The translations under genes were made by a program, and so were the position numbers. A stretch of 64,000 nt of DNA, taken from contig CBDCDS010000003.1 of assembly GCA_965215365.1 (NCBI GenBank), positions 896,001 through 960,000 on the forward strand, in the 5' to 3' direction. Positions 15,167-38,825 of the stretch are shown here, one piece after another (positions within the stretch are counted from its first letter, which is position 1; every line of letters starts with the position of its first letter). The notes below the pieces were generated by a model. It was not told the origin of the DNA, made no database searches, and saw only the letters and a list, made by a program, of their open reading frames with translations. The stretch comes from Gammaproteobacteria bacterium (lineage in GTDB: Bacteria > Pseudomonadota > Gammaproteobacteria > Eutrophobiales > Eutrophobiaceae).

Positions 15167-15207
15167 CAGGATAGACTGAGCCAGCGCTTCACTGAGAAGC
15201 TTTTTCC

Positions 15208-15741
15208 ATGACCGACGAAGAACTGAAAGCACTGGTTGCCGGCTTGGCCGTCGCGCAAGACCGTACTGATGCCCAGCTGGCGAAAAACGCCGCGCAGCTG
15301 GCGAAGACCGATGCCAAGCTGAACCGTCTGGCGGAAATGTACGGCGGTGTCGGCAACAGCCTAGGGGCGGCAGCCGAGGAGTTCTACCATAACAGCCTCA
15401 AGGCCAATCCGGTGCTGGCCGGGGTGCGCTTCGACTTCGTCGACCGGAACATCACCCGCAGCCGCGCCGGCCTTGAGGACGAGTTTGACCTGCTGTTAGT
15501 GAACGGTCGCGAAGTGTTTGTCGTGGAAGTGAAGTACAAGGCACATGAGAACGACTTGGCGCGCCTGCTGGACCAGAAGGCGCCCAACTTCCGGCGCTTA
15601 TTCCCGGAACACGCCGACCGCCGGCAGCGCTTGGCACTGGCCGCCTTCCACTTCCATGACGAGCTGAAGCAGGCGGCCTTAGCGCAGGGCGTGACCGTAC
15701 TGCAACGCAAGGGCGATGTCATCGAAACCCTTGCGGCCTAA
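15208..15741 (+). CDS. Heptad-repeat coiled-coil + PD-(D/E)XK nuclease-like protein (DUF3782-like), copy 1, 177 aa
   Basis: AKTDAQL-type heptads then AEEF...EFDLL...VEVK motif. Confidence 0.75.
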   Translation: MTDEELKALVAGLAVAQDRTDAQLAKNAAQLAKTDAKLNRLAEMYGGVGNSLGAAAEEFYHNSLKANPVLAGVRFDFVDRNITRSRAGLEDEFDLLLVNGREVFVVEVKYKAHENDLARLLDQKAPNFRRLFPEHADRRQRLALAAFHFHDELKQAALAQGVTVLQRKGDVIETLAA

Positions 15742-15839
15742 GCAAACTCCGAACAGCATACCGGTCGATGTAGCGCCGGAATCACACCTGCCCTTCAGGT
15801 CCCCAGCGAATAATTTGTCCTCTTCAAATCACTCTCATA

Positions 15840-16016
15840 AAGGACAGCGGCATCACCAACGACCCCAACGACTGGTCCGATGACCCGCGTTACATTCTTA
15901 ACCTGCTGCAAAAAGTGGTATGCGTAAGCATGGATACCATCAAAATCGTCAACAGCCTGCCCGAACTGGACCCGGTTACGGATTCCACAGGGTATAAGCG
16001 TGGCTTTCGTAGGTGA
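15840..16016 (+). pseudogene. 3' fragment of type ISP restriction-modification enzyme (copy 1)
   Basis: Translates KDSGITNDPNDWSDDPRYILNLLQKVVCVSMDTIKIVNSLPEL..., matching the conserved C-terminus of LlaGI/LlaBIII-type enzymes; no start codon. Confidence 0.8.
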
Positions 16017-16019
16017 AGC

Positions 16020-16078
16020 TAGCCCGCATATCTCACCAAGTGATGCGAAGATCGGGCCGGATTGGTTCTGCCTGCGGG
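16020..16078. mobile_element. MITE family B left-end remnant
   Basis: tagcccgcatatctcaccaagtgatgcgaagatcgggccggattggttctgcctgcggg matches start of 7570 element. Confidence 0.85.
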
Positions 16079-16151
16079 AGTAAAGGCCTTTTTATTTCAA
16101 GCCCGAGTGATGTAGAATGTCTCTCCTGAGCTGTTAACAGATGTAAACGTT

Positions 16152-16286
16152 ATGTATGCAGTGATAAAAACCGGTGGTAAACCGTGTGCGGCGCAGGCAG
16201 GGGGCACAGGGTGGAGCAGCCCGATGTCAGGGCAGCCTGTTGTTGGCGCCATCAATGCCGGCGCGAACGCCGACAGGATAGACTGA
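16152..16286 (+). pseudogene. rplU (L21) 5' fragment (first 10 codons) fused to unrelated sequence, copy 1
   Basis: ATG TAT GCA GTG ATA AAA ACC GGT GGT AAA C = MYAVIKTGGK, the L21 N-terminus; preceded by AT-rich region with TAGAAT. Confidence 0.75.
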
Positions 16287-16314
16287 GCCGCCGCTTCACT
16301 GAGAGGATTTTGCC

Positions 16315-16932
16315 ATGACTGATGAGGAACTGAAAGCACTGGTTGCCGGCTTGGCCGTCGCGCAAGACCGTACTGATGCCCAGCTGGCGAAAAACGCCGC
16401 GCAGCAGGCGAAGACCGAGGCCAAGCTGGCGAAGACCGAAGCCCTGCTGGCAGAAAACGCCGCGCAGCAGGCGAAGACCGATGCCCAGCAGGCGAAGACC
16501 GAGGCCAAGCTGAACCGTCTGGCGGAAATGTACGGCGGTGTCGGCAACAGCCTAGGGGCGGCAGCCGAGGAGTTCTACCATAACAGCCTCAAGGCCAATC
16601 CGGTGCTGGCCGGGGTGCGCTTCGACTTCGTCGACCGGAACATCACCCGCAGCCGCGCCGGCCTTGAGGACGAGTTTGACCTGCTGTTAGTGAACGGTCG
16701 CGAAGTGTTTGTCGTGGAAGTGAAGTACAAGGCACATGAGAACGACTTGGCGCGCCTGCTGGACCAGAAGGCGCCCAACTTCCGGCGCTTATTCCCGGAA
16801 CACGCCGACCGCCGGCAGCGCTTGGCACTGGCCGCCTTCCACTTCCATGACGAGCTGAAGCAGGCGGCCTTAGCGCAGGGCGTGACCGTACTGCAACGCA
16901 AGGGCGATGTCATCGAAACCCTTGCGGCCTAA
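16315..16932 (+). CDS. Heptad-repeat PD-(D/E)XK nuclease-like protein, copy 2, 205 aa
   Basis: Same as copy 1 with 4 extra heptads. Confidence 0.75.
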   Translation: MTDEELKALVAGLAVAQDRTDAQLAKNAAQQAKTEAKLAKTEALLAENAAQQAKTDAQQAKTEAKLNRLAEMYGGVGNSLGAAAEEFYHNSLKANPVLAGVRFDFVDRNITRSRAGLEDEFDLLLVNGREVFVVEVKYKAHENDLARLLDQKAPNFRRLFPEHADRRQRLALAAFHFHDELKQAALAQGVTVLQRKGDVIETLAA

Positions 16933-17030
16933 GCAAACTCCGAACAGCATACCGGTCGATGTAGCGCCGGAATCACACCTGCCCTTCAGGTCCCCAGCGA
17001 ATAATTTGTCCTCTTCAAATCACTCTCATA

Positions 17031-17207
17031 AAGGACAGCGGCATCACCAACGACCCCAACGACTGGTCCGATGACCCGCGTTACATTCTTAACCTGCTGC
17101 AAAAAGTGGTATGCGTAAGCATGGATACCATCAAAATCGTCAACAGCCTGCCCGAACTGGACCCGGTTACGGATTCCACAGGGTATAAGCGTGGCTTTCG
17201 TAGGTGA
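17031..17207 (+). pseudogene. 3' fragment of type ISP RM enzyme (copy 2)
   Basis: Same sequence as 15840-16016. Confidence 0.8.
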
Positions 17208-17210
17208 AGC

Positions 17211-17269
17211 TAGCCCGCATATCTCACCAAGTGATGCGAAGATCGCGCCGGATTGGTTCTGCCTGCGGG
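17211..17269. mobile_element. MITE family B left-end remnant (copy 2)
   Basis: As 16020-16078 with one SNP (17246 C vs 16055 G). Confidence 0.85.
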
Positions 17270-17342
17270 AGTAAAGGCCTTTTTATTTCAAGCCCGAGTG
17301 ATGTAGAATGTCTCTCCTGAGCTGTTAACAGATGTAAACGTT

Positions 17343-17477
17343 ATGTATGCAGTGATAAAAACCGGTGGTAAACCGTGTGCGGCGCAGGCAGGGGGCACAG
17401 GGTGGAGCAGCCCGATGTCAGGGCAGCCTGTTGTTGGCGCCATCAATGCCGGCGCGAACGCCGACAGGATAGACTGA
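17343..17477 (+). pseudogene. rplU 5' fragment fusion, copy 2
   Basis: Same sequence as 16152-16286. Confidence 0.75.
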
Positions 17478-17505
17478 GCCGCCGCTTCACTGAGAGGATT
17501 TTGCC

Positions 17506-18144
17506 ATGACTGATGAGGAACTGAAAGCACTGGTTGCCGGCTTGGCCGTCGCGCAAGACCGTACTGATGCCCAGCTGGCGAAAAACGCCGCGCAGCAGGC
17601 GAAGACCGAGGCCAAGCTGGCGAAGACCGAAGCCCTGCTGGCAGAAAACGCCGCGCAGCAGGCGAAGACCGATGCCCAGCAGGCGAAGACCGATGCCCAG
17701 CTGGCGAAGACCGATGCCAAGCTGAACCGTCTGGCGGAAATGTACGGCGGTGTCGGCAACAGCCTAGGGGCGGCAGCCGAGGAGTTCTACCATAACAGCC
17801 TCAAGGCCAATCCGGTGCTGGCCGGGGTGCGCTTCGACTTCGTCGACCGGAACATCACCCGCAGCCGCGCCGGCCTTGAGGACGAGTTTGACCTGCTGTT
17901 AGTGAACGGTCGCGAAGTGTTTGTCGTGGAAGTGAAGTACAAGGCACATGAGAACGACTTGGCGCGCCTGCTGGACCAGAAGGCGCCCAACTTCCGGCGC
18001 TTATTCCCGGAACACGCCGACCGCCGGCAGCGCTTGGCGCTGGCCGCCTTCCACTTCCATGACGAGCTGAAGCAGGCGGCCTTAGCGCAGGGCGTGACCG
18101 TACTGCAACGCAAGGGCGATGTCATCGAAACCCTTGCGGCCTAA
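17506..18144 (+). CDS. Heptad-repeat PD-(D/E)XK nuclease-like protein, copy 3, 212 aa
   Basis: Same as copy 1 with 5 extra heptads. Confidence 0.75.
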   Translation: MTDEELKALVAGLAVAQDRTDAQLAKNAAQQAKTEAKLAKTEALLAENAAQQAKTDAQQAKTDAQLAKTDAKLNRLAEMYGGVGNSLGAAAEEFYHNSLKANPVLAGVRFDFVDRNITRSRAGLEDEFDLLLVNGREVFVVEVKYKAHENDLARLLDQKAPNFRRLFPEHADRRQRLALAAFHFHDELKQAALAQGVTVLQRKGDVIETLAA

Positions 18145-18190
18145 GCAAACTCCGAACAGCATACCGGTCGATGTAGCGCCGGAATGACGC

Positions 18191-25609: not shown

Positions 25610-28498
25610 TCAATGCGCCACATCCCAGTTGGCACCGCGGCCGATTTCAACAACCAGCGGCACACTGAGTTCGGCGGCGCCGGACATAAGGCGGCTTACC
25701 TCGCGCGCGCAGTCATCGGCCTCGTTTTCCCCCACTTCAAACACCAGTTCATCATGAACCTGCATAATCATCCTGATATTTTTTTCGGAACGCAACAGTT
25801 TTTTATCAATTTCGATCATCGCCCGTTTGATAATGTCCGCCGCGCTGCCCTGCATCGGCGCGTTAATGGCAGTGCGCTCTGCGTACTGGCGCCTGGACGC
25901 GCTGCGCGAGTTGATTTCCGGCAGGTACAAGCGACGCCGGAACAGCGTTTCCACATAACCGGTCTGCCTGGCGCGCAGGCGGGTGCTATCCATATATTCC
26001 TTGACGCCGGGGTAGCGTTCAAAATACGTCTCCACGTAGCGCCGCGCGGCGCGGCGGGTAATGCCTAATTGCCGGGCCAGACCAAACGCCGACATGCCGT
26101 AAATCAGGCCAAAGTTGATGGCCTTGGCGGCCCGGCGCTGTGCTGCGCTGACCTCGGCCAGCCCCACCCCGAACACCTCCGCGGCGGTGGCCCGGTGAAT
26201 ATCGCGGCCGGCCGCAAACGCCGCCAGCAAGGTGGCGTCGCCGGACAAATGCGCCATGATGCGCAGTTCAATCTGGGAATAGTCCGCCGCCAGTAACCGC
26301 TTGCCGGGCGCCGCGACGAAGGCCTGGCGTATCTTCCTGCCGGCCTCGGTGCGGATCGGGATGTTCTGCAAATTGGGGTCTGATGAGGACAACCTGCCGG
26401 TGGCAGCCACGGCCTGGTGATACGAGGTATGCACGCGACCGCTGACCGGGTTGACCTGTTGCGGCAAGCGGTCTGTGTAGGTGGATTTGAGCTTGCTGAC
26501 TTCGCGGTGGCTGAGGATCAGCGCCGGCAACGGGTGACCGTCTGCAGCCAGTTCCTGCAGCACGGCTTCAGCGGTAGAGGGTTCGCCCGTAGGCGTGGTG
26601 GCGCTGACCGGCAAACCCATCTTGTCGAACAGAATTTCCCGTATCTGCTTGGGTGAACCGATATTGAATTCCTGTTTTGCCTGCTGGTACGCCTGTTGTT
26701 CTATGGCCTGCGCCTGTTGCGCCAGTTCTGCGCCTTGGTGCGCCAACATATCAGTATCGATCATGACGCCGTTGCGCTCCATGCGCGCAAGCACTCGAGA
26801 GAGGGGTATTTCCACGCGCGTATACAGTTCACGCAGGCCCGGCTCCCCGCCTAGTTGCGGCCATAACGTGCGATGCAGGCGCAAGGTAATGTCTGCGTCC
26901 GCTGCCGCATAAGCAGCGGCTTGCTCAACAGGAACCCGGTTAAACGGAATCTGTTTGGCCCCCTTGCCGGCCACATCTTCATAGCGGGTGACGGATTTAT
27001 CCAGGTACTTCTGCGCCAGACTGCCCATATCATGGCGCGTGGCCACACTGTCCAGCACGTAGGATTGCAACATGGTGTCGTGGGCCGCGCCATTTAATTC
27101 AATGCCGTAGCCGATAAGTACATTGCGGTCGAACTTCAGGTTCTGCCCGACCGTGAGCGGCCGCGGCGCCTCCAGCAGTGGACGTAATTTTTCCAGCGCC
27201 TTGCGGCGCGAAATCTGCTTCGGCGCGCCGGCGTAATCATGCGCTAAGGGTACGTAAGCCGCGGCGCCGGGGTGCACGGAAAAAGACACCCCCACCAGTT
27301 CCGCGCGCAGGTAATCCAGATCGGTGGTTTCCGTATCGAATGCGAACACCTCGGCCGCGGCCAGTTTGTCAATCCAGCGCTCTAATTGCTCCACGGTCAG
27401 GACGGTTTCATATTTTTCTGTCGTTGGAGTTGCGGCTACTGCCGGCATCATGGCGCCGGCCGGCTCACCAAACAGGTCTTCGCCGTCGCGACGCATTGTT
27501 TCAGCCAGCGTCTCCTCCTCGGCCTGCTCGTGGCTATACTCAGCGGACGACCCTGGCACGGATGCGAGCGCGGGCTGCGGCTGGTCCTGTGGTTTGGGGC
27601 GCTGCGGCGCGACCGCAGTCGCGCCGGACTCGGCCTGACCAGTGCTGTTGAGTTCCGGTAACCAGCTGCGAAAGCCCCAGCGCCGGTAATGTTCCCGCAG
27701 CGCCGTCTGGTCCTGAGCGGCGATCACCAGTTGTTGCGGTTGCACCGGCAGGTCCAGGTTGTCTCTGAGGGTTACCAGATCCTTGCTCATGGGAATCTGC
27801 TGCAGGTGCGCGCGCAGGTATTCCCCGACCTTACCGGGAAAGCTGTCCGCATTGGCGACGATGGTAGCTAAGCTGCCATGCTGCGTGAGCCACTTGACCG
27901 CAGTCTTGGGCCCGACCTTGGGAATCCCCGGCACGTTGTCCGAGGTATCACCGATCAAGGTCAGGTAATCGACGATGCGCTCCGGCGGCACCCCGTATTT
28001 TTCGATGACCCCGGCGCGATCAAAGCGGGTATTGTTCATGGTATTGATCAAGTGGATATCGTCATTGACGATCTGCGCCAAGTCCTTATCGCCAGTGGAC
28101 ACCAGGGTTCTCAGCCCGGCCTGCTGCGCGCGCGCGGCCAGAGTGGCGATAACGTCGTCGGCTTCCACCTCATCAATCAGCAATAACGGCACCCCCAACG
28201 CCCGGATGATCTCATGCAAAGGCCGGATCTGTGCCACTAAGTCCGGCGGCGCCGGCGGCCGGTTGGCCTTGTACTCGGGATAAATGTCGTTACGAAAACT
28301 CTTGCCCTTGGCATCGAACACCACCGCAAAATAATCCGGCCGCTCGGCCTTGAGCAACTTGCGCAACATGTTCACCACCCCGAAAATAGCCCCGGTCGGC
28401 TCCTTGTCCGCATTCGTGAGGCCCGGCATGGCGTGGTAGGCTCGGAACAGGTAATAAGAACCGTCTACTAAGGTGAGGAGTTTTTTGGGGGTGGTCAT
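25610..28498 (-). CDS. polA: DNA polymerase I
   Basis: 5'-3' exonuclease (LVDGS..LFRAYH), 3'-5' exo (FDTETT), polymerase (DYSQIELR, AKAINFGLIYG, QVHDEL). Confidence 0.99.
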   Translation of the reverse strand: MTTPKKLLTLVDGSYYLFRAYHAMPGLTNADKEPTGAIFGVVNMLRKLLKAERPDYFAVVFDAKGKSFRNDIYPEYKANRPPAPPDLVAQIRPLHEIIRALGVPLLLIDEVEADDVIATLAARAQQAGLRTLVSTGDKDLAQIVNDDIHLINTMNNTRFDRAGVIEKYGVPPERIVDYLTLIGDTSDNVPGIPKVGPKTAVKWLTQHGSLATIVANADSFPGKVGEYLRAHLQQIPMSKDLVTLRDNLDLPVQPQQLVIAAQDQTALREHYRRWGFRSWLPELNSTGQAESGATAVAPQRPKPQDQPQPALASVPGSSAEYSHEQAEEETLAETMRRDGEDLFGEPAGAMMPAVAATPTTEKYETVLTVEQLERWIDKLAAAEVFAFDTETTDLDYLRAELVGVSFSVHPGAAAYVPLAHDYAGAPKQISRRKALEKLRPLLEAPRPLTVGQNLKFDRNVLIGYGIELNGAAHDTMLQSYVLDSVATRHDMGSLAQKYLDKSVTRYEDVAGKGAKQIPFNRVPVEQAAAYAAADADITLRLHRTLWPQLGGEPGLRELYTRVEIPLSRVLARMERNGVMIDTDMLAHQGAELAQQAQAIEQQAYQQAKQEFNIGSPKQIREILFDKMGLPVSATTPTGEPSTAEAVLQELAADGHPLPALILSHREVSKLKSTYTDRLPQQVNPVSGRVHTSYHQAVAATGRLSSSDPNLQNIPIRTEAGRKIRQAFVAAPGKRLLAADYSQIELRIMAHLSGDATLLAAFAAGRDIHRATAAEVFGVGLAEVSAAQRRAAKAINFGLIYGMSAFGLARQLGITRRAARRYVETYFERYPGVKEYMDSTRLRARQTGYVETLFRRRLYLPEINSRSASRRQYAERTAINAPMQGSAADIIKRAMIEIDKKLLRSEKNIRMIMQVHDELVFEVGENEADDCAREVSRLMSGAAELSVPLVVEIGRGANWDVAH
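28193..28498 (-). repeat. 306-bp direct repeat copy 1 (polA codons 1-102)
   Basis: Identical by eye to 34464-34769 (offset 6271). Confidence 0.95.
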
Positions 28499-31464
28499 CC
28501 CGCCCCTGCAAGCAATTCATCAACACTGGTGATCACCTCGTATCGGGCGGGGTCTTCTCGAATTTCAAGCGCCTTAAAGTGGGCCCTGCCGCATTCGATC
28601 TTGGCAGCCTCGGTGAAGCGAAGATCTTCTAAGGATGTGCTGCCTTTCGTCTCAATGACCCAATACAAGCGTTCGATAGCATCCGAGTCTACCAAAATAG
28701 CCCAATCCGGATGATAGCTTCCGAGTGGCGTTGAAATAGAAAACCAACCGGGCAGTTTGGCGTAGACTTTAACGGCTTCATTCTTTTCCATCTGGTCTGC
28801 GAACCGGCGCTCGGTCTCCGACTCGTAAATGACCTTCTCGTAAACCGATTTCTCCGCATCAAGCATATTTCTCAAATAGCCGATTAGCTCTTCCTGCCGG
28901 AACAGTTCCTGCGCATAATAGGCTTCATCCCCGATGCGCTGATATTTGATACCGTCCACTAGCAACCGTCGCTTACAGCCATTGATAGACTGTGCAGCAA
29001 GCTCAATAAACTGCTGCGGATTCCGTTTGAAATCGTCAAGGCGTCCGCTTGCGGTGAGGACTTGATGAATACTCCGTCGTGTAAGCTGTGTCCGGTCTTC
29101 CAGTTCGGTCAGCAAATCAGGCAATTCGATGTCAGTTTCATTGAAGACGATAGTTGCCGACCCGGTGGTCTCAGTAGCCTCCATCCCGGCCTGACCAATG
29201 GCAATACTGGCTTTACGCCATTGCAGACGGGTCTTGGAGATCTCTTGTATATCCTGTATAGCCTTGACGCATTCTGCCAGAAGATCTCTGTTATCAAAGG
29301 CCACACGGTAGGTGGTCTTGTATTTAATACGGTCCCACAGTGCCCTGAACTCAGCGCTGTTAAGCACGGTCTGGCGTGGGTGGACAGTCTGGCGCTCGTC
29401 GGCATTCCCGATTTTCAGGGAGCCGGCGAGTTTACGTAAGATGGAAACGATATTCGCTCGTTGCTTAGTAAATTCGTAGGGCACAGCAAAACTATCATCC
29501 TTGATTGCCTGACGGAGCGAGTCCTGTATCTGCCCCGTTGCGTCAATATAGTCTTCCGCCCGTAGATGGTCGTACAGTATCCGCGACTTATCAAATCCGA
29601 AAGCTATTGCTTCCCCGTCTTCCCCAGGAACCGGCATCTGTGCAAACTGATGCAGCTCAATAACACCGAAGCGTATGCCGATATCTTTCTCGATCTCGTG
29701 TTGGAGGTTCTCGGCAAACTCCGCATAGTTTTCTCTTGCGACAACGGTCAGTATATTTACTTCGGAATCACGTAAACGTTCGCCATCCTGATTCACGCAC
29801 AGACGCAGTCCGCGCCCGATCGTTTGTCGGCGTTCCCGTTCGGTTTGGATGTCACGTAACGCACATATCTGAAACACATTCGGGTTGTCCCATCCTTCAC
29901 GCAGCGCCGAATGGGAGAAAATAAACCTGAGTGGCTCGTCCAGACTTAACAGCTTCTCCTTTTCTTTCATAATGAGGTTATAGGCGCGCTCAGCATTGTC
30001 TCGGTTAGCTTGATTGTTTTCAGCAGTATCCGTCCAGCCGCCTTTTTTATCGATGGAAAAGTAACCGTCATGGGCCTTCTCGGCATCTAACTCGATGTTT
30101 ACCTTGTTAAAGAATAAGGAATAGTCGGGATGGCGGGCGAGCCGCCGAAACTCCTGTTCAAAGACCAGCGCATAAGGACCCTTGATTGCATTGCCTTGCT
30201 CGTTGTAACGCCGGTAACGCTCCACCTTATCGACGAAGAACAAACTAAGCACCTTGATCCCTTGCGGCCGTAAGCGCACCTCTTTGTCCAGGTGTTCGCG
30301 AATCGTACGCCGTATCAGTTGGCGGTGAACAACCTCAGGATCCACATCTCCCCAGCTTTCACCCTCCCGTAAAAAAAGCTCACCACCCGGTATCATGAGC
30401 TCAACAAACGTATCCCCAACCCGTATTTCACCAATACGGCAATCTCGATAGATTGTTCGACCTGTCTCCTGTTCGAGATCGTCACCGTCTTGTACCTTTC
30501 TCACAACGCGCCGTACTCGCCCGGCGACTTCGATATCGAGTTCGACCTTGGCACTGATGATGCCGCGTTGGTTGCCAGTCGAGACCAGCCGTACATAGGG
30601 GCGATTATGGGCGCCTTCGACGGTGGCGGATGCCACTTCAATCTGCTTGACCAGCTTGCGTTCATAGGCATCGACCGCATCGAGTCGATAGACCATGTGA
30701 TGCTTGTCCACATGCGTCGCCGAATAACGTAGTGTGCAGAGCGGATTCATTGCGCCAAGTGCTTCCCTGCCGCGGCCACCGAGACCACCATCCACGCTCT
30801 GCGGCTCATCTACGACCACGATAGGGCGGGTAGCCCGGATAAGGTCAATGGGTTTCTCGCCGCCGGTCTTTTCATTGTCTTTGTAGAGGTTGTTAACCTC
30901 CTTCTTATTGATGGCGCCGACGGTGACCACCATGATCTGGATCTGTGGACTGGTGGTGAAATTTCGCACTCGGCCGAGCTTTGCCGAGTCGTAAAGGAAA
31001 TACTCGAATGGTGTGCCTGAGTAGAGCGCTCGAAAATGGTCGTTGGTCATCTGGAGCGATTTGTAAACGCCCTCCTTGATCGCTAACGACGGAACAACTA
31101 TGACGAACTTGGTGAAGCCAAAACGCTTATTCAGTTCGAAAATCGTGCGCAGATAAACATAGGTCTTACCGGTTCCCGTTTCCATCTCAACGGTAAAATC
31201 ACCGGATTCGAGGGAGTTGGTCGGCGGCAATCCGTTGCGGAGTTGAATATCGTTCAGGTTCGCAAGAATTTCATCATCTGACAAGCTCAGCCGGTTACCA
31301 ACGCCGAGAGCATTATCGGCTAAGCTTAATCGGGATTGTGGGTTCTTGGTATCGCGGCAAACAGTAAATTCGGTTCGACAGACCTCCTGACCATGGAACA
31401 GATCGCAAACGGCGTCTATCGCCTGCAACTGAAAATCGAGGTCGCTCTCGAAACGGAGCTTCAT
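28495..31464 (-). CDS. res: Type III restriction endonuclease Res subunit
   Basis: EMETGTGKTYVY, VDEPQ, FSHSALREGWDNPNVFQIC, QTIGRGLRL, C-terminal PDWA...ETKG. Confidence 0.95.
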   Translation of the reverse strand: MKLRFESDLDFQLQAIDAVCDLFHGQEVCRTEFTVCRDTKNPQSRLSLADNALGVGNRLSLSDDEILANLNDIQLRNGLPPTNSLESGDFTVEMETGTGKTYVYLRTIFELNKRFGFTKFVIVVPSLAIKEGVYKSLQMTNDHFRALYSGTPFEYFLYDSAKLGRVRNFTTSPQIQIMVVTVGAINKKEVNNLYKDNEKTGGEKPIDLIRATRPIVVVDEPQSVDGGLGGRGREALGAMNPLCTLRYSATHVDKHHMVYRLDAVDAYERKLVKQIEVASATVEGAHNRPYVRLVSTGNQRGIISAKVELDIEVAGRVRRVVRKVQDGDDLEQETGRTIYRDCRIGEIRVGDTFVELMIPGGELFLREGESWGDVDPEVVHRQLIRRTIREHLDKEVRLRPQGIKVLSLFFVDKVERYRRYNEQGNAIKGPYALVFEQEFRRLARHPDYSLFFNKVNIELDAEKAHDGYFSIDKKGGWTDTAENNQANRDNAERAYNLIMKEKEKLLSLDEPLRFIFSHSALREGWDNPNVFQICALRDIQTERERRQTIGRGLRLCVNQDGERLRDSEVNILTVVARENYAEFAENLQHEIEKDIGIRFGVIELHQFAQMPVPGEDGEAIAFGFDKSRILYDHLRAEDYIDATGQIQDSLRQAIKDDSFAVPYEFTKQRANIVSILRKLAGSLKIGNADERQTVHPRQTVLNSAEFRALWDRIKYKTTYRVAFDNRDLLAECVKAIQDIQEISKTRLQWRKASIAIGQAGMEATETTGSATIVFNETDIELPDLLTELEDRTQLTRRSIHQVLTASGRLDDFKRNPQQFIELAAQSINGCKRRLLVDGIKYQRIGDEAYYAQELFRQEELIGYLRNMLDAEKSVYEKVIYESETERRFADQMEKNEAVKVYAKLPGWFSISTPLGSYHPDWAILVDSDAIERLYWVIETKGSTSLEDLRFTEAAKIECGRAHFKALEIREDPARYEVITSVDELLAGAG

Positions 31465-32471
31465 ACATTACCCCATCTTCGGCTACCGGAACGGGTTTTT
31501 TCTGTGCACAGCGCCAACAGGTTCTTGTAGCGTTTTGGAAAAACGCTCTCTGGAATGATTTCATACTCAAAGCGGTTATTTGATACCTTTTGAAATACCA
31601 ACACGCAGGGGCGGTCTCCATACTCTAAGTCGCTGATTACGACCCGCACTGTGTAATTCCGGAATACGGTGATTGTGAGTTCTCGTGTGAATGGGCTATT
31701 CTTTGCCTGAATAGTAATAGTTCTGCTTGATCCGACTCCTCCAACGCCAAAAAAAGCGGCGGCAGCTTTGACTGGAAGCTGGAGTTGTTTTCCATCGATA
31801 CCTGTTTCTCTTGGCATTACTTCGATGATCAGACTCCCGAAGTTCGCCGCAGTCACTGGCTTCTCTGTTACCGGCTTGCTTCTTGCCCTCCAAGTGAAAT
31901 TCACCATCCCTGCACATGCACGTTCTCTCTCGAACTCCAAGCGCTGACTTTTGTAAGAGTTGAGAAGATCGGATGTAAGAATGGTGCTGGTTTTCTCAAT
32001 CTCTCGTGCCCACCGGTTAAGCGCTGCAGGAGCTTTCTGCGCTCGTACAAGCAAAGCAAACTCAACGTTGTTAAGCAGGCCGTCACGAGTCAGGTTATTG
32101 CTGCCAACCCAAACGATATGTCTCTTGCTTCCCTGCAGCCAAACTACCTTAGGATGAAATATACCGTTATAGTCAATCATCAAGCGTACATCGATCCCGG
32201 ATTCACTGATCTGCTCAAGCGCAGCAGGGTCAGTTATTGCGTGATCTGTACCGACGAAGAGAAGCACAGAGCGTTCCTCGTCATCACCCTTCCATTGCAA
32301 TATCGACTGGCGAACCTGATCCCAACCTGACTGTGTTACCGCGTAAAAGTACATGGAAAGCATCGTACAGGATCGGTCAGCTTGTAAAGTCGAAATTAAA
32401 GAGTCCCGAAAGGCAGTAACGCTCCACTTTCCTGTTATCCATGTCGGGAGATGTTTATGAGCTTTCACCAT
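31461..32471 (-). CDS. PLD-family (HKD) nuclease, BfiI/NgoFVII-like, with C-terminal putative DNA-binding domain
   Basis: FHPKV...VGSNNLT..GL..N.E motif; ATG 32471 overlaps mod stop. Confidence 0.75.
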   Translation of the reverse strand: MVKAHKHLPTWITGKWSVTAFRDSLISTLQADRSCTMLSMYFYAVTQSGWDQVRQSILQWKGDDEERSVLLFVGTDHAITDPAALEQISESGIDVRLMIDYNGIFHPKVVWLQGSKRHIVWVGSNNLTRDGLLNNVEFALLVRAQKAPAALNRWAREIEKTSTILTSDLLNSYKSQRLEFERERACAGMVNFTWRARSKPVTEKPVTAANFGSLIIEVMPRETGIDGKQLQLPVKAAAAFFGVGGVGSSRTITIQAKNSPFTRELTITVFRNYTVRVVISDLEYGDRPCVLVFQKVSNNRFEYEIIPESVFPKRYKNLLALCTEKTRSGSRRWGNV

Positions 32472-34420
32472 CAGATGCTCCTGACTGAAGAAATACCCCT
32501 TTCGCAAAGGAATGTTGCCAAGTTGATTTTTGTAATGTCGTCCACAAATGCATTATCTCGAAAGATACAGGAAACCTCTTCTACTGCAGGGAGCTCCTGG
32601 CGCCAGGCAATGATTTCTGCGCCAATTTCATCCGCGTCAGAAGCCGTGATGGTTACATCAAGGCAGGCGAAGAATACGCCGCCGCCCACCGAATAGATCC
32701 TTTTATTCGATCTCATTCTCTCTTGGATAGGTATGCACAGGTCTAAGCCGAGCTTAATTAGCAGTTCAAATAGAATATCGCTTTCGCTACGATCACCCTT
32801 TAAGCTTTCAATAGACATTTGTAGTGAGTTTTCCAGGTTACCGTATTCCGGATCCCATTCTTGTATATTTGTTGAATCCAGCTTGAAAACGCGAAAACCA
32901 ATGTCACCCGAAAACATTGGGTTTTTATCTCGAAAGCCGACCCCTGTGCGACGCAGAAATTCCTTTGTCAGTTCGGCGATATTATTGGCCTTCTTCTGAG
33001 AATTAAGAAAGCTCACTGCCGCTTGCTGTTCCTTATTGTCAGGATTCAGGCATTCAGGTAGTTGGACCAAAATGTATCTACGCGCTAGCCCATCCTCAAG
33101 ATTTTGCTGCATGACACCGCTTGCCGTTGTCCCGGATCCGGCAAAGAAGTCGAGAACTATGTCATCAGCAGAGGAGATTGCCCGTATCAGGTATTTGATT
33201 AGGCCAGAAGGTTTTGGGTAGCTCACAACATCCATTCCGAACAGCATCCTCATCTCTTGAGTAGCATCTTCATTTGTTGGCACTCCATTTGTCCGATGTG
33301 ATAACAGATTGGATATTTTCTTCATTTCGCCGGAACGATTGATGTAATTCGGCCGGAAGGGGATTTTGTGTATTACGATCTCAGCGCCATTGGCAATAAA
33401 CTCGTTTAGTTTGGCTTGTGAATAACGCCATTCGCCACGGAGTCGAAATTCGCCAGCATTAACACCACCTTCAACTTTCACGTCATCAAGGAGTTCGGTA
33501 ACGATGTTTCCCTCCGACATATCCTGTGCGCGAATCGATTGATCCTGACAAGAAAACTTCACAGATCGCGGGGGGAAACAAAGAATGCTGGCAGGATTCC
33601 CCGCATTATTAAACGGATATTTTTTACCATCTTCGACTGAGCCTGCGACAAATGCCGGAGCGAGCGACCGAGTTTTGGCGTATGCAATAATATAATCAGT
33701 AATGGAGCCCATGTTACGGTCAAGAAAGGAAGGTTTTTTCTTCTTTTCCCAGATAAACGTCCCGCAAAAATTTTCTCCTCCAAATATATCATCGCAAATA
33801 GCACGCAAGTTATGTATTTCAGTGTCATCGATGGAGATTAGAAGGACACCATCAGATTTAAGTAAATGTCTTGATAGCAGTAATCTGGGATACATCATGT
33901 TCAGCCAGTCAGTATGGAACCGGCCCGAGGCTTCTGTTTTGGAGGACAGTTTGCCATTCTCACCATCGATCTGGCCGGTTAGTTCCAAGTAGTTACGCAA
34001 GTTGTCACGGTAGTTGTCCGGATAGACAAAGTCCTTTCCTGTGTTATAGGGAGGATCGATGTAGATTAGCTTGATTTTGCTGGCATAGCTTTTTTGCAGA
34101 AGCTTCAGCACTTCCAGATTGTCGCCTTCAATCATCAGGTTCTGCGTGGTGTCCCAATCGACGCTGTCTTCAGGGCAGGGGCGTAATGTCCCGGTCGAGG
34201 GGGTCAGTGCGAGCTGTCGTGCACGGCGTTTGCCGTGCCAGCTGAGGCCATATTTCTCCTCACCTTCTTCGACGTTACCACCAAGTAGTTGCCGAAGCAC
34301 ATCAAAGTCCACCTTGTCCTCAGTGAACGTATCAGGGAATAGTGTCTTCAACTGTTCAGTATTCTCAGCGATAACGTCGATAGAGCAAGTATCAATATCA
34401 CCAGAGACTATCTTCTTCAT
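32471..34420 (-). CDS. mod: Type III methyltransferase Mod subunit (beta class)
   Basis: [59 protein letters not shown]. Confidence 0.95.
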
Positions 34421-34769
34421 GCTTCATTCTCCAAAATTGCAATACCAAATCCTGATGCTCACACCCCAACGCCCGGATGATCTCATGCAAAGGCCGGATC
34501 TGTGCCACTAAGTCCGGCGGCGCCGGCGGCCGGTTGGCCTTGTACTCGGGATAAATGTCGTTACGAAAACTCTTGCCCTTGGCATCGAACACCACCGCAA
34601 AATAATCCGGCCGCTCGGCCTTGAGCAACTTGCGCAACATGTTCACCACCCCGAAAATAGCCCCGGTCGGCTCCTTGTCCGCATTCGTGAGGCCCGGCAT
34701 GGCGTGGTAGGCTCGGAACAGGTAATAAGAACCGTCTACTAAGGTGAGGAGTTTTTTGGGGGTGGTCAT
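34398..34769 (-). pseudogene. Truncated polA' (first 102 codons duplicated, then 21 unrelated codons)
   Basis: MTTPKKLL...EIIRALG identical to polA, then CEHQDLV...SLW*; reading frame overlaps mod start. Confidence 0.93.
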
Positions 34770-34824
34770 TTCAAGACAATTTTGACTTTCCCGCGAATAA
34801 AGCAGGCAAAAGATGCAAAAAACT

Positions 34825-34862
34825 TCCCTTTCCCCCGGAGGGAGAGGGCAGGGACGAGGGGG
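34825..34862. repeat. BoxC/REP-like palindrome (CCCTYTCCC...GGGAGAGGG type)
   Basis: tccctttcccccggagggagagggcagggacgaggggg. Confidence 0.55.
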
Positions 34863-34909
34863 ATACAATCTTCCACATTATTGGGACCTGCTTGATCTGG
34901 CCTATGGCG

Positions 34910-35128
34910 TCAGACTTGATCCTTGCCAATGAACTTATCTCCTCTATAGCTTGTTTCGGCTGGTTCCCTTTCGAAATAACTTGTAGTGTTATCCTGCCAA
35001 CGGACAAGACACGTGACCCCATCCGACCTAGGACGCGATCTGCCAGTTAAATTCCCTCGATTTCCAGGATCGTCACGCAAGTAAACTTCCGTGCCTTTGG
35101 GATATTGATTTACAGTGTTTTCGGTCAC
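34910..35128 (-). pseudogene. Short ORF, possibly N-terminal remnant of a large SNF2/RapA-like helicase
   Basis: GTEVYLRDDPGNRGNLTG...CLVRWQD..TSY resembles Tudor-like N-termini of such helicases; weak recall only. Confidence 0.25.
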
Positions 35129-35291
35129 AAATTTACGATGTATTGGTATTCAGCTGATTTTACAGTCCTTTTGTCAAAAATGAAGGGTTTATGTTCTGAA
35201 TATGTCCGTGGCAGCTTGAATATTGCAGTAATTGCATGATTTTTTAATTACAATACTTGCATTATGGATTGAGGTCATTTACCATGAAACC

Positions 35292-35888
35292 ATGAGTGCA
35301 TTGAACAAGCTGAAACGACATCTTCGCCCGGGGCAGGTTTATCGCCGCGCCGACCTTCTGCCGTGGTCAAATGCCGTGGATCGGCATCTGCAACAGCTTG
35401 TTGGGGAAGGGACTTTAACCAAGCTTTCGGGAGGGCTGTACTATTGTCCCAAGCATACAAACTTCGGAGTTACGCCAGCCAGTGAGGAAAAGCTTGTCAA
35501 AGCGTTTCTGAAAGACCACCGCTTTTTACTGACTTCACCTAATGCCTACAACGCGCTTGGAGTTGGTTCAACGCAGCTCTACAACGAGACCATCGTTTAC
35601 AACCACAAGCGCCATGGCAATTTCGCTCTTGGCAACCGCACATTTAATTTTCGGATGAAACCACATTTTCCCTCGAAGATCTCCAAGGAGTTCTTGCTGG
35701 TCGATCTGGTGGACAACCCTGACCGTCTGGCCGAGCACAAACCTTCGATACTTGCAATGGTGAAGAAGCAGGCACAGAGCGCCGATCATAAAGCGCTGAA
35801 AAAAGCCGTCCGCGAGTACGGCGGGTCAAAAGCCAAAAAGTTCTTTGAGCCATTATTGTCTCAAGGTGCAATACCTGATGCCACATGA
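35292..35888 (+). CDS. AbiEi-like antitoxin / wHTH regulator of type IV TA
   Basis: GQVYRR.DL..S.AVDRHL..LV..G.L.KL.GGLYY.P, LG...TQL; directly upstream of AbiEii-like fragment. Confidence 0.7.
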   Translation: MSALNKLKRHLRPGQVYRRADLLPWSNAVDRHLQQLVGEGTLTKLSGGLYYCPKHTNFGVTPASEEKLVKAFLKDHRFLLTSPNAYNALGVGSTQLYNETIVYNHKRHGNFALGNRTFNFRMKPHFPSKISKEFLLVDLVDNPDRLAEHKPSILAMVKKQAQSADHKALKKAVREYGGSKAKKFFEPLLSQGAIPDAT

Positions 35889-36024
35889 ATTTCTTCACCA
35901 GAACAAAGAATTTGCCGACCTGATCCGTATCGTTGGGGAGGAGCGTTCCGTCGCCCCCATTCTTGTAAGGTCAAAATTCTGGATGACGGAGCATTTTCCG
36001 GGCCATCTCAGCTCGGGCCTATAG
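35878..36024 (+). pseudogene. Truncated AbiEii-like nucleotidyltransferase toxin (first ~30 codons)
   Basis: MPHEFLHQNKEFADLIRIVGEERSVAPILV then breaks where EKDY would be expected; stop at 36024. Confidence 0.65.
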
Positions 36025-36108
36025 CTGATGCGATCCGGCTTGGAGGCAGAAGCGAGTGACAAATTCGCGTCAATGACAGGCGCCACGCCCGCACAGTCAT
36101 CACGAGCG

Positions 36109-36774
36109 TCATTTCAGTGCAACGATGATACCTATTATTGCGATTCCGCCCCCTATGAACCACCTCATTGAAGAGATACTCTCTTTCATTGCAGAGACAC
36201 TTTCTTCCAGCCTTTTTACATTGGCGGCAAGTGAACGTAGTGTTGTATTCACTTCTGACAAAGACAATATTTCACGCTCAAGCACCGCCTCCAAATCTTC
36301 GTTGGAAAGTGATGATTGATCCTGGTAGGGGCCGGAATAAGGCCGTTCTACCGGTTCGCTGAGGCGGTGAAATTCCACCGTGAGAAGATCATCTAAGTGT
36401 GACAGGGCTATTTTCCTGCTGGTCAGATTAGTCAGTCCGATACCTAACCTCCCCTTAAATCCTGGGTCGATCTGTGGGCCTGTAGTCGCAAGCAATCCCT
36501 TACGCGCCCATTTGCTGCGCAGGCCGAAGCGGCCGCTGTGTTGATTATTCAGAGAGATAACTTCTTCGGTAACCAGCACCGCAAAATCGCCTGCATCCAG
36601 TTCGACAAACCCTTTCTCTTTAACATTAACCTTGCCGCGGCGGGACGACACTGCTGCCTCAGGACCCACCCGTAAATCGTAGGAAGCCGGTTGGATTTGC
36701 TGATCGTTAAAAGGTGATATACCGACACTACCCTCGGAGCAGGCTTGCCGAATCATGCTGTCAGTCAGTATCAT
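36109..36774 (-). CDS. dCTP deaminase/dUTPase-fold protein with C-terminal coiled coil and TM helix
   Basis: MILTD..I, IQPASYDLRVG, RS..AR.G, IDPGF.G.L, Y.G.YQ.Q; tail WFIGGGIAIIGIIVALK. Confidence 0.8.
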   Translation of the reverse strand: MILTDSMIRQACSEGSVGISPFNDQQIQPASYDLRVGPEAAVSSRRGKVNVKEKGFVELDAGDFAVLVTEEVISLNNQHSGRFGLRSKWARKGLLATTGPQIDPGFKGRLGIGLTNLTSRKIALSHLDDLLTVEFHRLSEPVERPYSGPYQDQSSLSNEDLEAVLEREILSLSEVNTTLRSLAANVKRLEESVSAMKESISSMRWFIGGGIAIIGIIVALK

Positions 36775-36969
36775 GGTAGCGATACTAGCATATTTTCGCC
36801 TCTTTTGGGTCTCAAAACTTAGATGATTGGATCATGAAACTGATACGATTGGCAGTCATTCGTTCCCGTGGTCAACTTGACTTGCCACAATTATGACTAT
36901 TGGCAATTCCGAATATTCGCTGTACTATCTGTCTGTCCCAAGTAGCCTGAACTATGTGGGGGAGAGTCA

Positions 36970-37314
36970 ATGAAATATGTTCTTGCCGGTATGCTTAGCC
37001 TGCTCCTGATCACGGGGGCGGGCGCGCAGGACTATGAGGATGGAGAACTGGGGGAGGCGCCCAAGCCGCCGGAGCTGCCGGACCCGTTGAAGAGCGGCGA
37101 GGCAATTGAACCGCAGGTGACCATCATCCGCAAGGACGACGCGATCATTGAAGAATACCGCCTGGACGGCCGGCATTACATGACTCGCATCATCCCGGCA
37201 GTCGGCCCGGCTTACTATCTGGTGGACCGCGACGGAGACGGCCGGATGGAAACTCGCATGAGCGAAATCTACGATGACTTCACCGTGCCACAGTGGGTGT
37301 TATTCAGTTGGTGA
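36970..37314 (+). CDS. DUF2782-family exported protein
   Basis: Signal peptide, EPQVTII...IEEYR..G..YM....P..GP.YYL.D.DGDG...VPQWVLFSW; usual divergent neighbour of polA. Confidence 0.85.
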   Translation: MKYVLAGMLSLLLITGAGAQDYEDGELGEAPKPPELPDPLKSGEAIEPQVTIIRKDDAIIEEYRLDGRHYMTRIIPAVGPAYYLVDRDGDGRMETRMSEIYDDFTVPQWVLFSW

Positions 37315-37326
37315 TCGAGAAATAAT

Positions 37327-37360
37327 GGGAACTTCTAAAAATGCCCTCCGTGGCATTTTT
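37327..37360. repeat. Family A left-end remnant
   Basis: gggaacttctaaaaatgccctccgtggcattttt. Confidence 0.7.
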
Positions 37361-37403
37361 GCTGTGTAAGTTTCACCTGCCCTGGCCTGTTTATGTCCCT
37401 GTC
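37355..37403 (+). repeat. 49-bp imperfect direct repeat (copy 1) upstream of Fic gene
   Basis: 45/49 identical to 38845-38893. Confidence 0.8.
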
Positions 37404-37460
37404 ACTAGGCCGGTATTGGGCCATAGTCAGGCCACAAATCGTAACGAACCGGGGCGGAGA

Positions 37461-38825
37461 ATGAAAAAAACCGATGTAACGATTATATCAGAAATTGTCA
37501 ATGCGTCCGATGCAGGCCTCAGTAGCGTTGCCATCTATACTGCCTTGAAGAAAAGGATGCGGGATGACGTTCCCAGTCACAGAGCATTCAAGCGCCGGCT
37601 GGCCATTCTTGTTGAAAAAGGAAAAATTGCACGTATCGGCAAGGACCGGGCCGTAACATACCGGCGTCCCGCCGGCGCGCCGGCGCCGGTTGCCGTTGAT
37701 GAAGCCAGACTCGTCATCCCCATCTCAGACGAGGGCCATGCTGTTCAGGAGTATGTGCGCCGGCCCGTTCAGGGACGGGAACCTGCCGGGTACGAGCATG
37801 AGTTCCTAGAAGATTATATCCCCAACGATACCTGCTACCTGCCGGAACACATCAGGCGGGACCTGTCCTTGATCGGTGAAATCAGCAATCCCACCCCGGC
37901 AGGCAGCACCTACCAACCGGAGACGGTCAACCGGTTACTGGTCGATCTGTCCTGGGCCTCCAGCCGTCTGGAAGGCAATACGTACTCGCTCATTGACACA
38001 CAAAATCTGGTCGTGGATGGGGTCTTTGCCGAAGGAAAAGACCGGGCTGAGGCCGATATGATCCTGAACCACAAGCACGCCATTGATATGTTGCTGGAAA
38101 ATGCAGATACCCTGGGCTATAACAGGTACACGTTCCTGAGCCTGCACAAACTGTTGTCAGACAACCTGATGGGCGATCCGGCAGATAGCGGGCGGCTGCG
38201 CCAGAAGATAGTCGAGATAGGCGGTTCCGTGTACAGTCCACTCGGGTTCCCGCAGCAGGTGGAAGACTATTTCAGGATGTTCCTGGATAAGGCCGGGGAC
38301 ATAGAAGACCCGTTTGAGCAGTCGTTCTTCACCATGGTACACCTGCCGTACCTGCAACCCTTCACCGATGTCAATAAGCGCACGGCAAGGCTGGGTGCCA
38401 ACATCCCGCTGATCAAGAACAAGCTGTGTCCGTTGTCATTCATCGAGGTGCCCGAGCAAGACTATATCGAAGGAAACCTGGGTGTGTATGAACTGAATGA
38501 CACCAGCCTGCTGCAGGACGTGTACCTGTGGGCGTACGAACGGTCCTGCCGACGGTATAACACTATAAAACGGTTGGACTCCAGCAGAGATCCATACCGG
38601 ACAAAATACAAGCAACTGCTTTATTCGGTCACGGGAAAAATCATTAAACAAAAACTTGAAGCAACCGATGCATGCATCGCGGAGCTGGCGCGAGACCGCG
38701 TTATCAGCAACGATACCAACAGGTTCATCAAGATGGTCAACGATGAGTTGCGGAGCATGGACGCAGTGGGCTTGAATCGGTATGGTGTCAGCATGGAAGA
38801 GTTCCATGCGTGGCAGCGGGGCTAA
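37461..38825 (+). CDS. Fic-family protein with N-terminal HTH
   Basis: SWASSRLEGNTYS inhibitory motif; HLPYLQPFTDVNKRTARL Fic motif variant. Confidence 0.9.
   Translation: MKKTDVTIISEIVNASDAGLSSVAIYTALKKRMRDDVPSHRAFKRRLAILVEKGKIARIGKDRAVTYRRPAGAPAPVAVDEARLVIPISDEGHAVQEYVRRPVQGREPAGYEHEFLEDYIPNDTCYLPEHIRRDLSLIGEISNPTPAGSTYQPETVNRLLVDLSWASSRLEGNTYSLIDTQNLVVDGVFAEGKDRAEADMILNHKHAIDMLLENADTLGYNRYTFLSLHKLLSDNLMGDPADSGRLRQKIVEIGGSVYSPLGFPQQVEDYFRMFLDKAGDIEDPFEQSFFTMVHLPYLQPFTDVNKRTARLGANIPLIKNKLCPLSFIEVPEQDYIEGNLGVYELNDTSLLQDVYLWAYERSCRRYNTIKRLDSSRDPYRTKYKQLLYSVTGKIIKQKLEATDACIAELARDRVISNDTNRFIKMVNDELRSMDAVGLNRYGVSMEEFHAWQRG

Follow-up and report, generated by a model that had tools for sequence, protein, structure and literature searches.

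How did a Type III restriction-modification (RM) cassette come to be bracketed by two identical stretches of polA 5' sequence, from the gene of DNA polymerase I (Pol I), and does this arrangement record a single insertion or a longer history? The window considered here is a stretch of 64,000 nucleotides (nt) from the genome of a Gammaproteobacteria bacterium (GenBank assembly GCA_965215365.1, contig CBDCDS010000003.1, positions 896,001 to 960,000 of the forward strand), and coordinates refer to it unless another contig is named. The genome holding the window will be referred to as G000, and its relatives of the same genus as G005, G006 and G018, where G006 and G018 are sister species. We consider that an ordinary Type III RM cassette, composed of a methyltransferase gene (mod), a PLD-like accessory gene and a restriction endonuclease gene (res), occupies a defence-gene hotspot upstream of polA and was shaped there by several steps, a reading to which we assign a probability of roughly 60%. 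In this sense, the repeat anchored at the polA start codon and the overlap of res with polA appear to be secondary and lineage-specific, rather than the original scar of an insertion.

The two direct repeats (28193-28498 and 34464-34769) are 306 bp long and 100% identical, with a start-to-start spacing of 6,271 bp. The repeat search returned 28193-28492 against 34464-34763 at 100%, and the limits were extended by base-by-base comparison of both copies; identity stops sharply at both ends (28499 g vs 34770 a; 28192 g vs 34463 t). Read on the minus strand, the first base of the repeat is the A of the polA start codon, and exactly these two copies are present in the whole 2.73-Mb assembly. The insert between them comprises 5,965 bp with mod, the PLD-like gene and res, all on the minus strand, and the guanine-plus-cytosine (GC) content of the cassette is 45-51%, against about 58-64% in polA. 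The comparison of both copies thus bears out the original prediction in its description of identical 306-bp repeats that start at the polA ATG and bracket mod-PLD-res. The features of the locus, including the truncated left copy of polA (polA') and its open reading frame (ORF), are as follows:

25610-28498, minus strand: intact polA, encoding DNA polymerase I of 962 amino acids (aa), with all four Pol I domains (Pfam 5_3_exonuc_N, 5_3_exonuc, DNA_pol_A_exo1 and DNA_pol_A, 541 bits).
28193-28498, minus strand: right repeat copy, polA codons 1-102 (repeat comparison, whole-genome search, public contigs).
28495-31464, minus strand: res, Type III restriction endonuclease/helicase, 989 aa (ResIII, DEAD, RE_endonuc; PADLOC REase_III PDLC03647, 1303 bits, positions 1-986 of 989).
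31461-32471, minus strand: PLD-like accessory gene between mod and res (PLDc_2, 32.7 bits; weak DrmC/ZacB matches).
32471-34420, minus strand: mod, Type III DNA methyltransferase, 649 aa (N6_N4_Mtase; PADLOC MTase_III PDLC03634, 664 bits).
34398-34769, minus strand: chimeric polA' ORF of 123 aa, 102 Pol I residues plus a read-through tail of 21 residues (5_3_exonuc_N matched over positions 2-98 of 164 only).
34421-34463, minus strand: cassette leader of 43 nt, from the polA' breakpoint (junction J2) to the mod ATG, with GGAG 9 nt before the ATG.
34464-34769, minus strand: left repeat copy (polA'), with the native polA leader directly before it (repeat comparison, public contigs).
34770-34821, minus strand: native polA leader, about 22-50 nt (BLAST homology and alignments with G006 and G018).

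These genes form a continuous chain. The polA' ORF overlaps the start of mod by 23 nt, counted from the mod ATG on, and ends 20 nt inside mod; mod and the PLD-like gene overlap at TGATG, where a single A (32471) belongs to the mod stop codon as well as to the PLD ATG; the PLD stop codon lies on the res ATG (ATGA), and the polA ATG lies on the res stop codon (also ATGA), with no intergenic polA leader in G000, where AGGGG is found 5 nt upstream of the polA ATG. All of these overlaps had been claimed beforehand and all are present, and the statement that intact polA lacks an upstream region of its own is true in G000. Mod and a Res with an SF2 helicase and a C-terminal endonuclease domain sit together, with the PLD-like gene between them, which is the gene set of a Type III RM system. 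Pfam and PADLOC agree with the claim that this cargo comes without integrase or transposase, as the Pfam search of the insert returned N6_N4_Mtase, PLDc_2 and ResIII/DEAD/RE_endonuc only, and no integrase, recombinase or transposase gene. The notion of an integrase-mediated island was also considered and rejected: no recombinase domain is found in the insert, and the repeat is a 306-bp coding segment, not a short repeat of the att type. RecA-type recombination between the two copies would, on paper and as had been proposed, delete 6,271 bp and restore a polA preceded by its leader.

The junctions of this arrangement are also found in public sequence data. Logan contigs of four public runs were compared with positions 27000-34500; runs X1 and X4 belong to study P1 and run X5 to study P2, X1-X4 being possibly the source sample of the window, and X5 offering independent support from another study and under another organism label. 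A contig of exactly 306 bp, corresponding to the repeat, occurs in each of X1, X4 and X5. Both the res-ATG and the polA'-cassette junctions lie on a contig of 6,025 bp in X1 and X4, and on two contigs in X5; this sequence covers the whole cassette and reaches 30 bases into the repeat copy on either side. A further contig exits the repeat into native upstream sequence (34770 onwards). Contig depths, which by the tool's own warning are not copy numbers, are about twice as high in the repeat contig as in its neighbours both in X1 (65 vs 31-37) and in X4 (308 vs 110-172). Contigs this short look alike for the integrated form and for a circle beside an empty site, the four junctions being the same in either case. 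Small shares in runs X18-X20 (0.07-0.17) could represent cassette-free relatives.

The comparison with the sister species is what argues for a history of several steps. In G006 and G018, res is followed by a cassette tail of ~27 nt and then by the native polA leader, with a spacer of about 88-92 nt between res and polA; leader homology to window positions 34770 onwards extends over 22 nt in G006 and 39 nt in G018 by BLAST, or ~50 nt by eye. The C-terminal end of Res reads AGAVGG* in both sisters vs AGAG* in G000, where it is two residues shorter. A single G (28499) in G000 replaces 88 nt of G006, and the same 88 letters are found in an independent G006-like contig of run X6. Because G006 and G018 keep a spacer with the leader, the ATGA overlap of res and polA and the missing leader are a peculiarity of the G000 lineage. 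The description of polA as the last coupled gene of the RM operon is thus right for G000 and does not extend to the locus in general, the spacer having apparently been lost secondarily in the G000 lineage only.

On the other side of the cassette, junction J2 (…cgttgggg joined to tgtgagcatcagg…) is identical to the base in G000 and G006, with the polA sequence ending at nt 306 and the cassette sequence taking over 43 nt ahead of the mod ATG, and this identity implies that the join was made once. The homology of G018 begins ~15 nt inside the 43-nt cassette leader, and a polA' remnant was looked for in this genome and not found, nor was a flanking repeat of >9 bp. The polA' of G006 is a mosaic with respect to its own polA, as nt 1-100 are 73% identical (best match 79%, to G005), nt 101-200 100% and nt 201-306 94%; it is preceded by the end of a PDC-S46 gene, not by the polA leader. 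The check in related genomes that had been suggested, i.e., the same duplication anchored at the ATG with absent or different cargo, therefore gave a divided answer: G006 has the same polA'-cassette junction beside other cargo, but its polA' is a mosaic without leader, and G018 has none. The read-through tail of polA' was found only in its own 90% cluster of 6 members, with G006-type versions on G006 and 4 further public contigs. Outside this cluster, the short Pol I N-terminal matches inspected (P0002-P0006) look like frameshifted or partial polA and do not suggest further chimeric junctions. The G006 polA' (L015:13142-13561) is still open over 139 codons, with a TTG start that overlaps the end of the PDC-S46 gene, and the G006 chain of PDC-S46 gene, polA', mod, PLD-like gene and res is also tightly packed on one strand.

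Defence-gene hotspots are flanked by conserved core genes, and their cargo is exchanged by homologous recombination in the flanks. The site upstream of polA is a hotspot of this kind, with different cargo in each species. In G005 the site is empty, with polA followed by about 170 bp and then by the homologue of window positions 36969-37314. The hotspot cargo of G006 (L015:13558-19651) comprises the PDC-S46 candidate defence gene (854 bits), an IS1380 transposase and a MunI-type RM pair. Beyond the RM cassette, the cargo of G000 includes:

34822-36968, no strand assigned: further hotspot cargo, absent from G005 (profile matches, comparison with G005).
35232-35888, plus strand: AbiEi-like antitoxin gene (296 bits), hotspot cargo.
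36109-36774, minus strand: dCTP-deaminase-like gene, hotspot cargo.
37341-38825, plus strand: Fic-domain gene (SoFic/PDC-S04-like), an insertion relative to G005 and G018 (profile matches, genome comparison).

The polA site resembles other defence hotspots in its varied cargo beside a conserved gene and in a cargo younger than its flanks; it differs in that one cargo has, on its far side, a copied fragment of the core gene which travels or recombines with this cargo.

The distribution of the cassette is narrow and tied to this locus. While polA is present in 23/23 genomes of the genus, the cassette was found only in G000, G006 and G018, each time directly upstream of polA, and a second copy of the polA 5' end only in G000 and G006, the other 21 genomes being single-copy. 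At ≥87% identity the cassette occurs in 3/126 genomes of the order; five other genomes of the order show only partial matches of 66-73% to other Type III systems, and no polA was found within the short flanks examined for three of these five. Relatives of Res amount to at least 594 confirmed stretches in genome contigs (G006 and G018 are not among the matches listed), and the neighbours were counted in the best 80 of these genome loci, outside the genus, and in 80 metagenome loci retrieved with Mod among the matches listed. polA adjoins res in 0/80 of the former and 0/80 of the latter, with one locus showing a polA-like match ~7 kb away. The closest Mod relatives among the metagenome matches listed reach 62-64% identity, and no extra variants of the locus were found among them. 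A search of 72,556 plasmid and 50,697 phage records returned no near match to the cassette DNA.

Divergence at four-fold sites provides a measure of relative age. Between G000 and G006, differences were found at 60/879 sites of the cassette (0.068) and 114/736 sites of the flanks, i.e., two his genes and polA (0.155; Fisher p = 3e-8); between G000 and G018, the counts were 232/799 (0.29) and 273/599 (0.46), respectively (Fisher p = 3e-10). The divergence of the cassette is accordingly 1.6-2.3 times below that of the flanks. As the cassette is younger than the species splits and nonetheless occupies the same position, it has been exchanged between species into the polA locus, most likely by recombination anchored in polA. 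The two copies of the repeat tell of a further event: at the neutral rate implied by the cassette, roughly ten changes are expected in the non-coding polA' of G000 since the split of the G000 and G006 cassettes, and none is seen; therefore the two copies were homogenised or re-made recently.

From these observations, a plausible sequence of events may be put together. The cassette would first have settled ~80-90 nt upstream of the polA ATG with the native leader intact, as in G018 today. It would then have passed between species of the genus after the species split, always into the polA locus, by homologous recombination with polA as the anchor. One illegitimate join of polA nt 306 to the point 43 nt upstream of mod would have placed polA' on the far side of the cassette, the state shared by G000 and G006, and incoming DNA may from then on have found in polA' a second anchor, which would account for the mosaic seen in G006. 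The spacer would then have been lost on the way to G000: a single G would have taken the place of the last codons of res together with the cassette tail and the native leader (88 nt in G006), with the res stop codon fused to the polA ATG and the repeat trimmed to begin exactly at the ATG. Finally, the two copies would have been made identical recently, either by gene conversion or in the same event. The order of these events and the recombination mechanism are deduced from comparison of the genomes, and deletion in situ followed by conversion is offered as the route to the G000 state only tentatively, at somewhat less than even odds.

Several points weigh against this history. The direction of the change, i.e., loss of the spacer in G000 rather than its gain in the others, is suggested by parsimony over the two sister genomes and run X6, because an empty site was not found in any genome of the same species. 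At the presumed deletion no microhomology is seen, and the G at 28499 fits the sequence on neither side. A further event has to be assumed for the perfect identity of both copies. The four-fold sites of polA codons 1-102 show 4/51 differences to G006, which is cassette-like, but not significantly unlike the rest of polA (p = 0.15), and the base composition of the cassette (45-51% vs about 60% GC) could be partly behind its lower four-fold divergence. Lastly, the depth of the repeat contig in X5 is not doubled (153 vs 149-199 in its neighbours), in spite of the presence of both cassette junctions and the native-leader junction in this run; this could be a depth artefact or a mixed population.

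Among the other explanations, the one that fares best proposes excision and re-integration of the Campbell type, which we regard as possible but unlikely. According to it, a circle of 6,271 bp, made of the 306-bp polA' and the cassette and closed by a joint of the res end to the ATG, would have come from a G006-like ancestor or donor, and would have recombined once, within the 306 bp that open polA, with a chromosome that still had its leader before polA. In one step this would account for a leader on the left side only, for the fusion of res with polA, and for a repeat that equals the homology carried by the circle; it also suits a cassette which, lacking an integrase, was passed from species to species into one locus, and the G006 polA' shows that the fragment takes part in recombination. 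A life cycle of RM units with long direct repeats is, moreover, a published hypothesis, put forward by Furuta, Abe and Kobayashi (2010; PMC2853133). Nonetheless, this model does no better than the deletion model in explaining why the closing joint should fall on the ATG itself, it requires donor polA' and recipient polA to have been identical beforehand, and the plasmid and phage records mentioned above offer no vehicle. The duplication anchored at the ATG is secondary in the in-situ model as well as in the circle model. An extension of the same idea, in which the polA fragment acts as a portable homology arm for loop-out and for re-entry at polA of related chromosomes by single crossover, with the cassette entrenched by removal of the polA leader, seems to us doubtful. 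If it were true, any loss of the cassette other than by precise recombination of the repeats, or a polar mutation in it, would starve the cell of Pol I, i.e., an addiction through captured expression of a housekeeping gene.

The expression of polA bears on these ideas in its own right. In G000, transcription of polA would run through res or begin within it, and translation probably depends on coupling or on the AGGGG that precedes the polA ATG by 5 nt; polA' and the cassette stand behind the native polA start, from which the cassette would be read as one transcript with polA'. A scan for promoter and terminator consensus sequences over 28100-35300 gave counts at or below shuffled expectation, by which the absence of such signals is not shown. 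Six sigma-70-like sites were found vs 7.9 expected, one of them on the minus strand, inside mod, and none on this gene strand near either polA start. The scan is weak evidence either way on the promoter question. A hairpin with a U-run just upstream of the native leader had an unremarkable fold (z = -1.19), and was not used.

The reading given in the original prediction, namely a single insertion into polA with an exact target duplication from the ATG, yielding an autonomous, reversible and integrase-free unit dependent on the polA promoter, has in our opinion become improbable. It is consistent with the lack of any mobility gene in the insert and with a 3' part of res in which no sigma-70-like promoter was found on the gene strand. 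The duplication anchored at the ATG does not, however, behave as the footprint of one insertion, since the sister genomes keep the spacer and leader between res and polA, and one of them, G018, has no duplication. In addition, the G006 cassette follows the PDC-S46 gene and a mosaic polA', not the polA leader, and therefore the cassette does not generally depend on the polA promoter.

The IS1634 family of insertion sequences (IS) makes long and variable target duplications. This same genome has an IS1634-family element of 1,892 bp with 14-bp inverted ends and a transposase (NF033559, 357 bits), whose copies outside the window at G000:C3:358135-360376, 635283-637785 and 1233944-1236226 are flanked by 100% identical repeats of 175, 305 and 195 bp, respectively; a fourth full copy lies at 1918675-1920566. 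A transposase that creates long target duplications, such as that of this element, might in principle have made the 306-bp repeat, which falls in the same size range as the perfect direct repeats of 175-305 bp flanking those inserts. This origin is nevertheless very improbable, as the RM cassette has neither IS ends nor a transposase (a search with ≤3 mismatches gave 7 window matches vs 5.5 expected, none at the junctions), inverted repeats of the IS1634 type are missing from the cassette boundaries in all three species, and the cassette of G018 stands without any duplication. An assembly misjoin in the repeat or in the position of the cassette is scarcely credible: although an exact 306-bp repeat is too long for short reads to span and unitigs break at its ends, independent contigs from X1, X4 and X5 include all four junction sequences, the depth of the repeat contig is ~2x that of its neighbours in X1 and X4, and a homologous integrated arrangement is found in the single-contig genome G006 and in run X6. 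Since the junctions are present in contigs of three runs from two studies, the duplication is not a misassembly, which had been named as a possible refutation.

The G000 locus is a real example of an already described mode of settlement of RM genes, with no new mechanism, the twist being a polA without a leader of its own. RM gene complexes inserted with long target duplication were collected by Furuta, Abe and Kobayashi (2010; PMC2853133), who required R and M genes in the insert, an insert of <20 kb without other mobile-element genes, and a repeat of >30 bp. The same paper gives such insertions for Types I-IV, among them a Type III case in Campylobacter jejuni (208/208 bp) and Helicobacter pylori repeats of about 390 bp, and refers to earlier H. 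pylori cases under its ref. 37; a virus-like cycle of insertion, amplification and release is presented there as a hypothesis, the release being without experimental support (PMC2853133). The G000 locus has R and M inside, an insert of 5,965 bp and a repeat of 306 bp. The class also calls for a comparator genome in which the target is single-copy and uninterrupted, so that the repeat corresponds to the target duplicated in one insertion; G005 with its empty site and the 21 single-copy genomes bear on this point, but in the nearest relatives with the cassette the locus has been remodelled and the present repeat boundary appears secondary. G000 shares with the class R and M genes that lie, without integrase or transposase, between long target-derived repeats, and an insert with GC content below that of the host. 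It departs from it in several respects: its repeat is the polA 5' end, whose exact start at the ATG would be secondary trimming; its sisters preserve no-duplication and decayed or mosaic states of the same locus; and polA, the housekeeping gene downstream, overlaps res and no longer has a leader of its own. Two other reports (PMC3240628, PMC3784515) concern homology-facilitated illegitimate recombination and merodiploids generated by transformation: there, too, one homologous anchor is combined with one illegitimate joint, and duplications can arise when DNA taken up pairs at two places; unlike in those systems, transformation as a route is not indicated by anything at the polA locus. No polA locus with a Type III RM insertion and direct repeats was found among the matches listed in the full-text literature.

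One cassette at one site can thus be followed through three natural states, namely without duplication (G018), with an old mosaic (G006) and with a perfect duplication and downstream fusion (G000). The series suggests that a "long target duplication" need not be a single scar, and that some of them at least may have been remodelled by homologous and illegitimate recombination around a core-gene anchor. The polA locus would also lend itself to testing how a housekeeping gene has come to depend on a defence operon for its expression. Should excision and re-entry turn out to be true, they would give an experimental footing to the proposed RM life cycle.

The slot between mod and res, filled here by the PLD-like gene, takes many alternative accessory genes. 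Among 108 scorable loci from 160 Res and Mod relatives (L026-L185), the gap between mod and res measures <300 bp in 58 and ≥369 bp in 50. The slot ORFs of ≥150 aa (n = 46) include RhuM (10), YhcG/DUF1016 nuclease (7), PLDc_2 (4), Macro (3), Abi_2 (3), AAA_21 (2), Schlafen/AlbA_2 (2) and UvrD_C_2 (2), as well as one each of Fic, TIR_2, GmrSD, PDDEXK_3, DUF4258 and AIG2; 7/46 had no Pfam match. Elsewhere in the window, tandem copies with a unit of ~1.19 kb and 98% identity occupy positions 15167-18185 (G000:C3:911167-914185).

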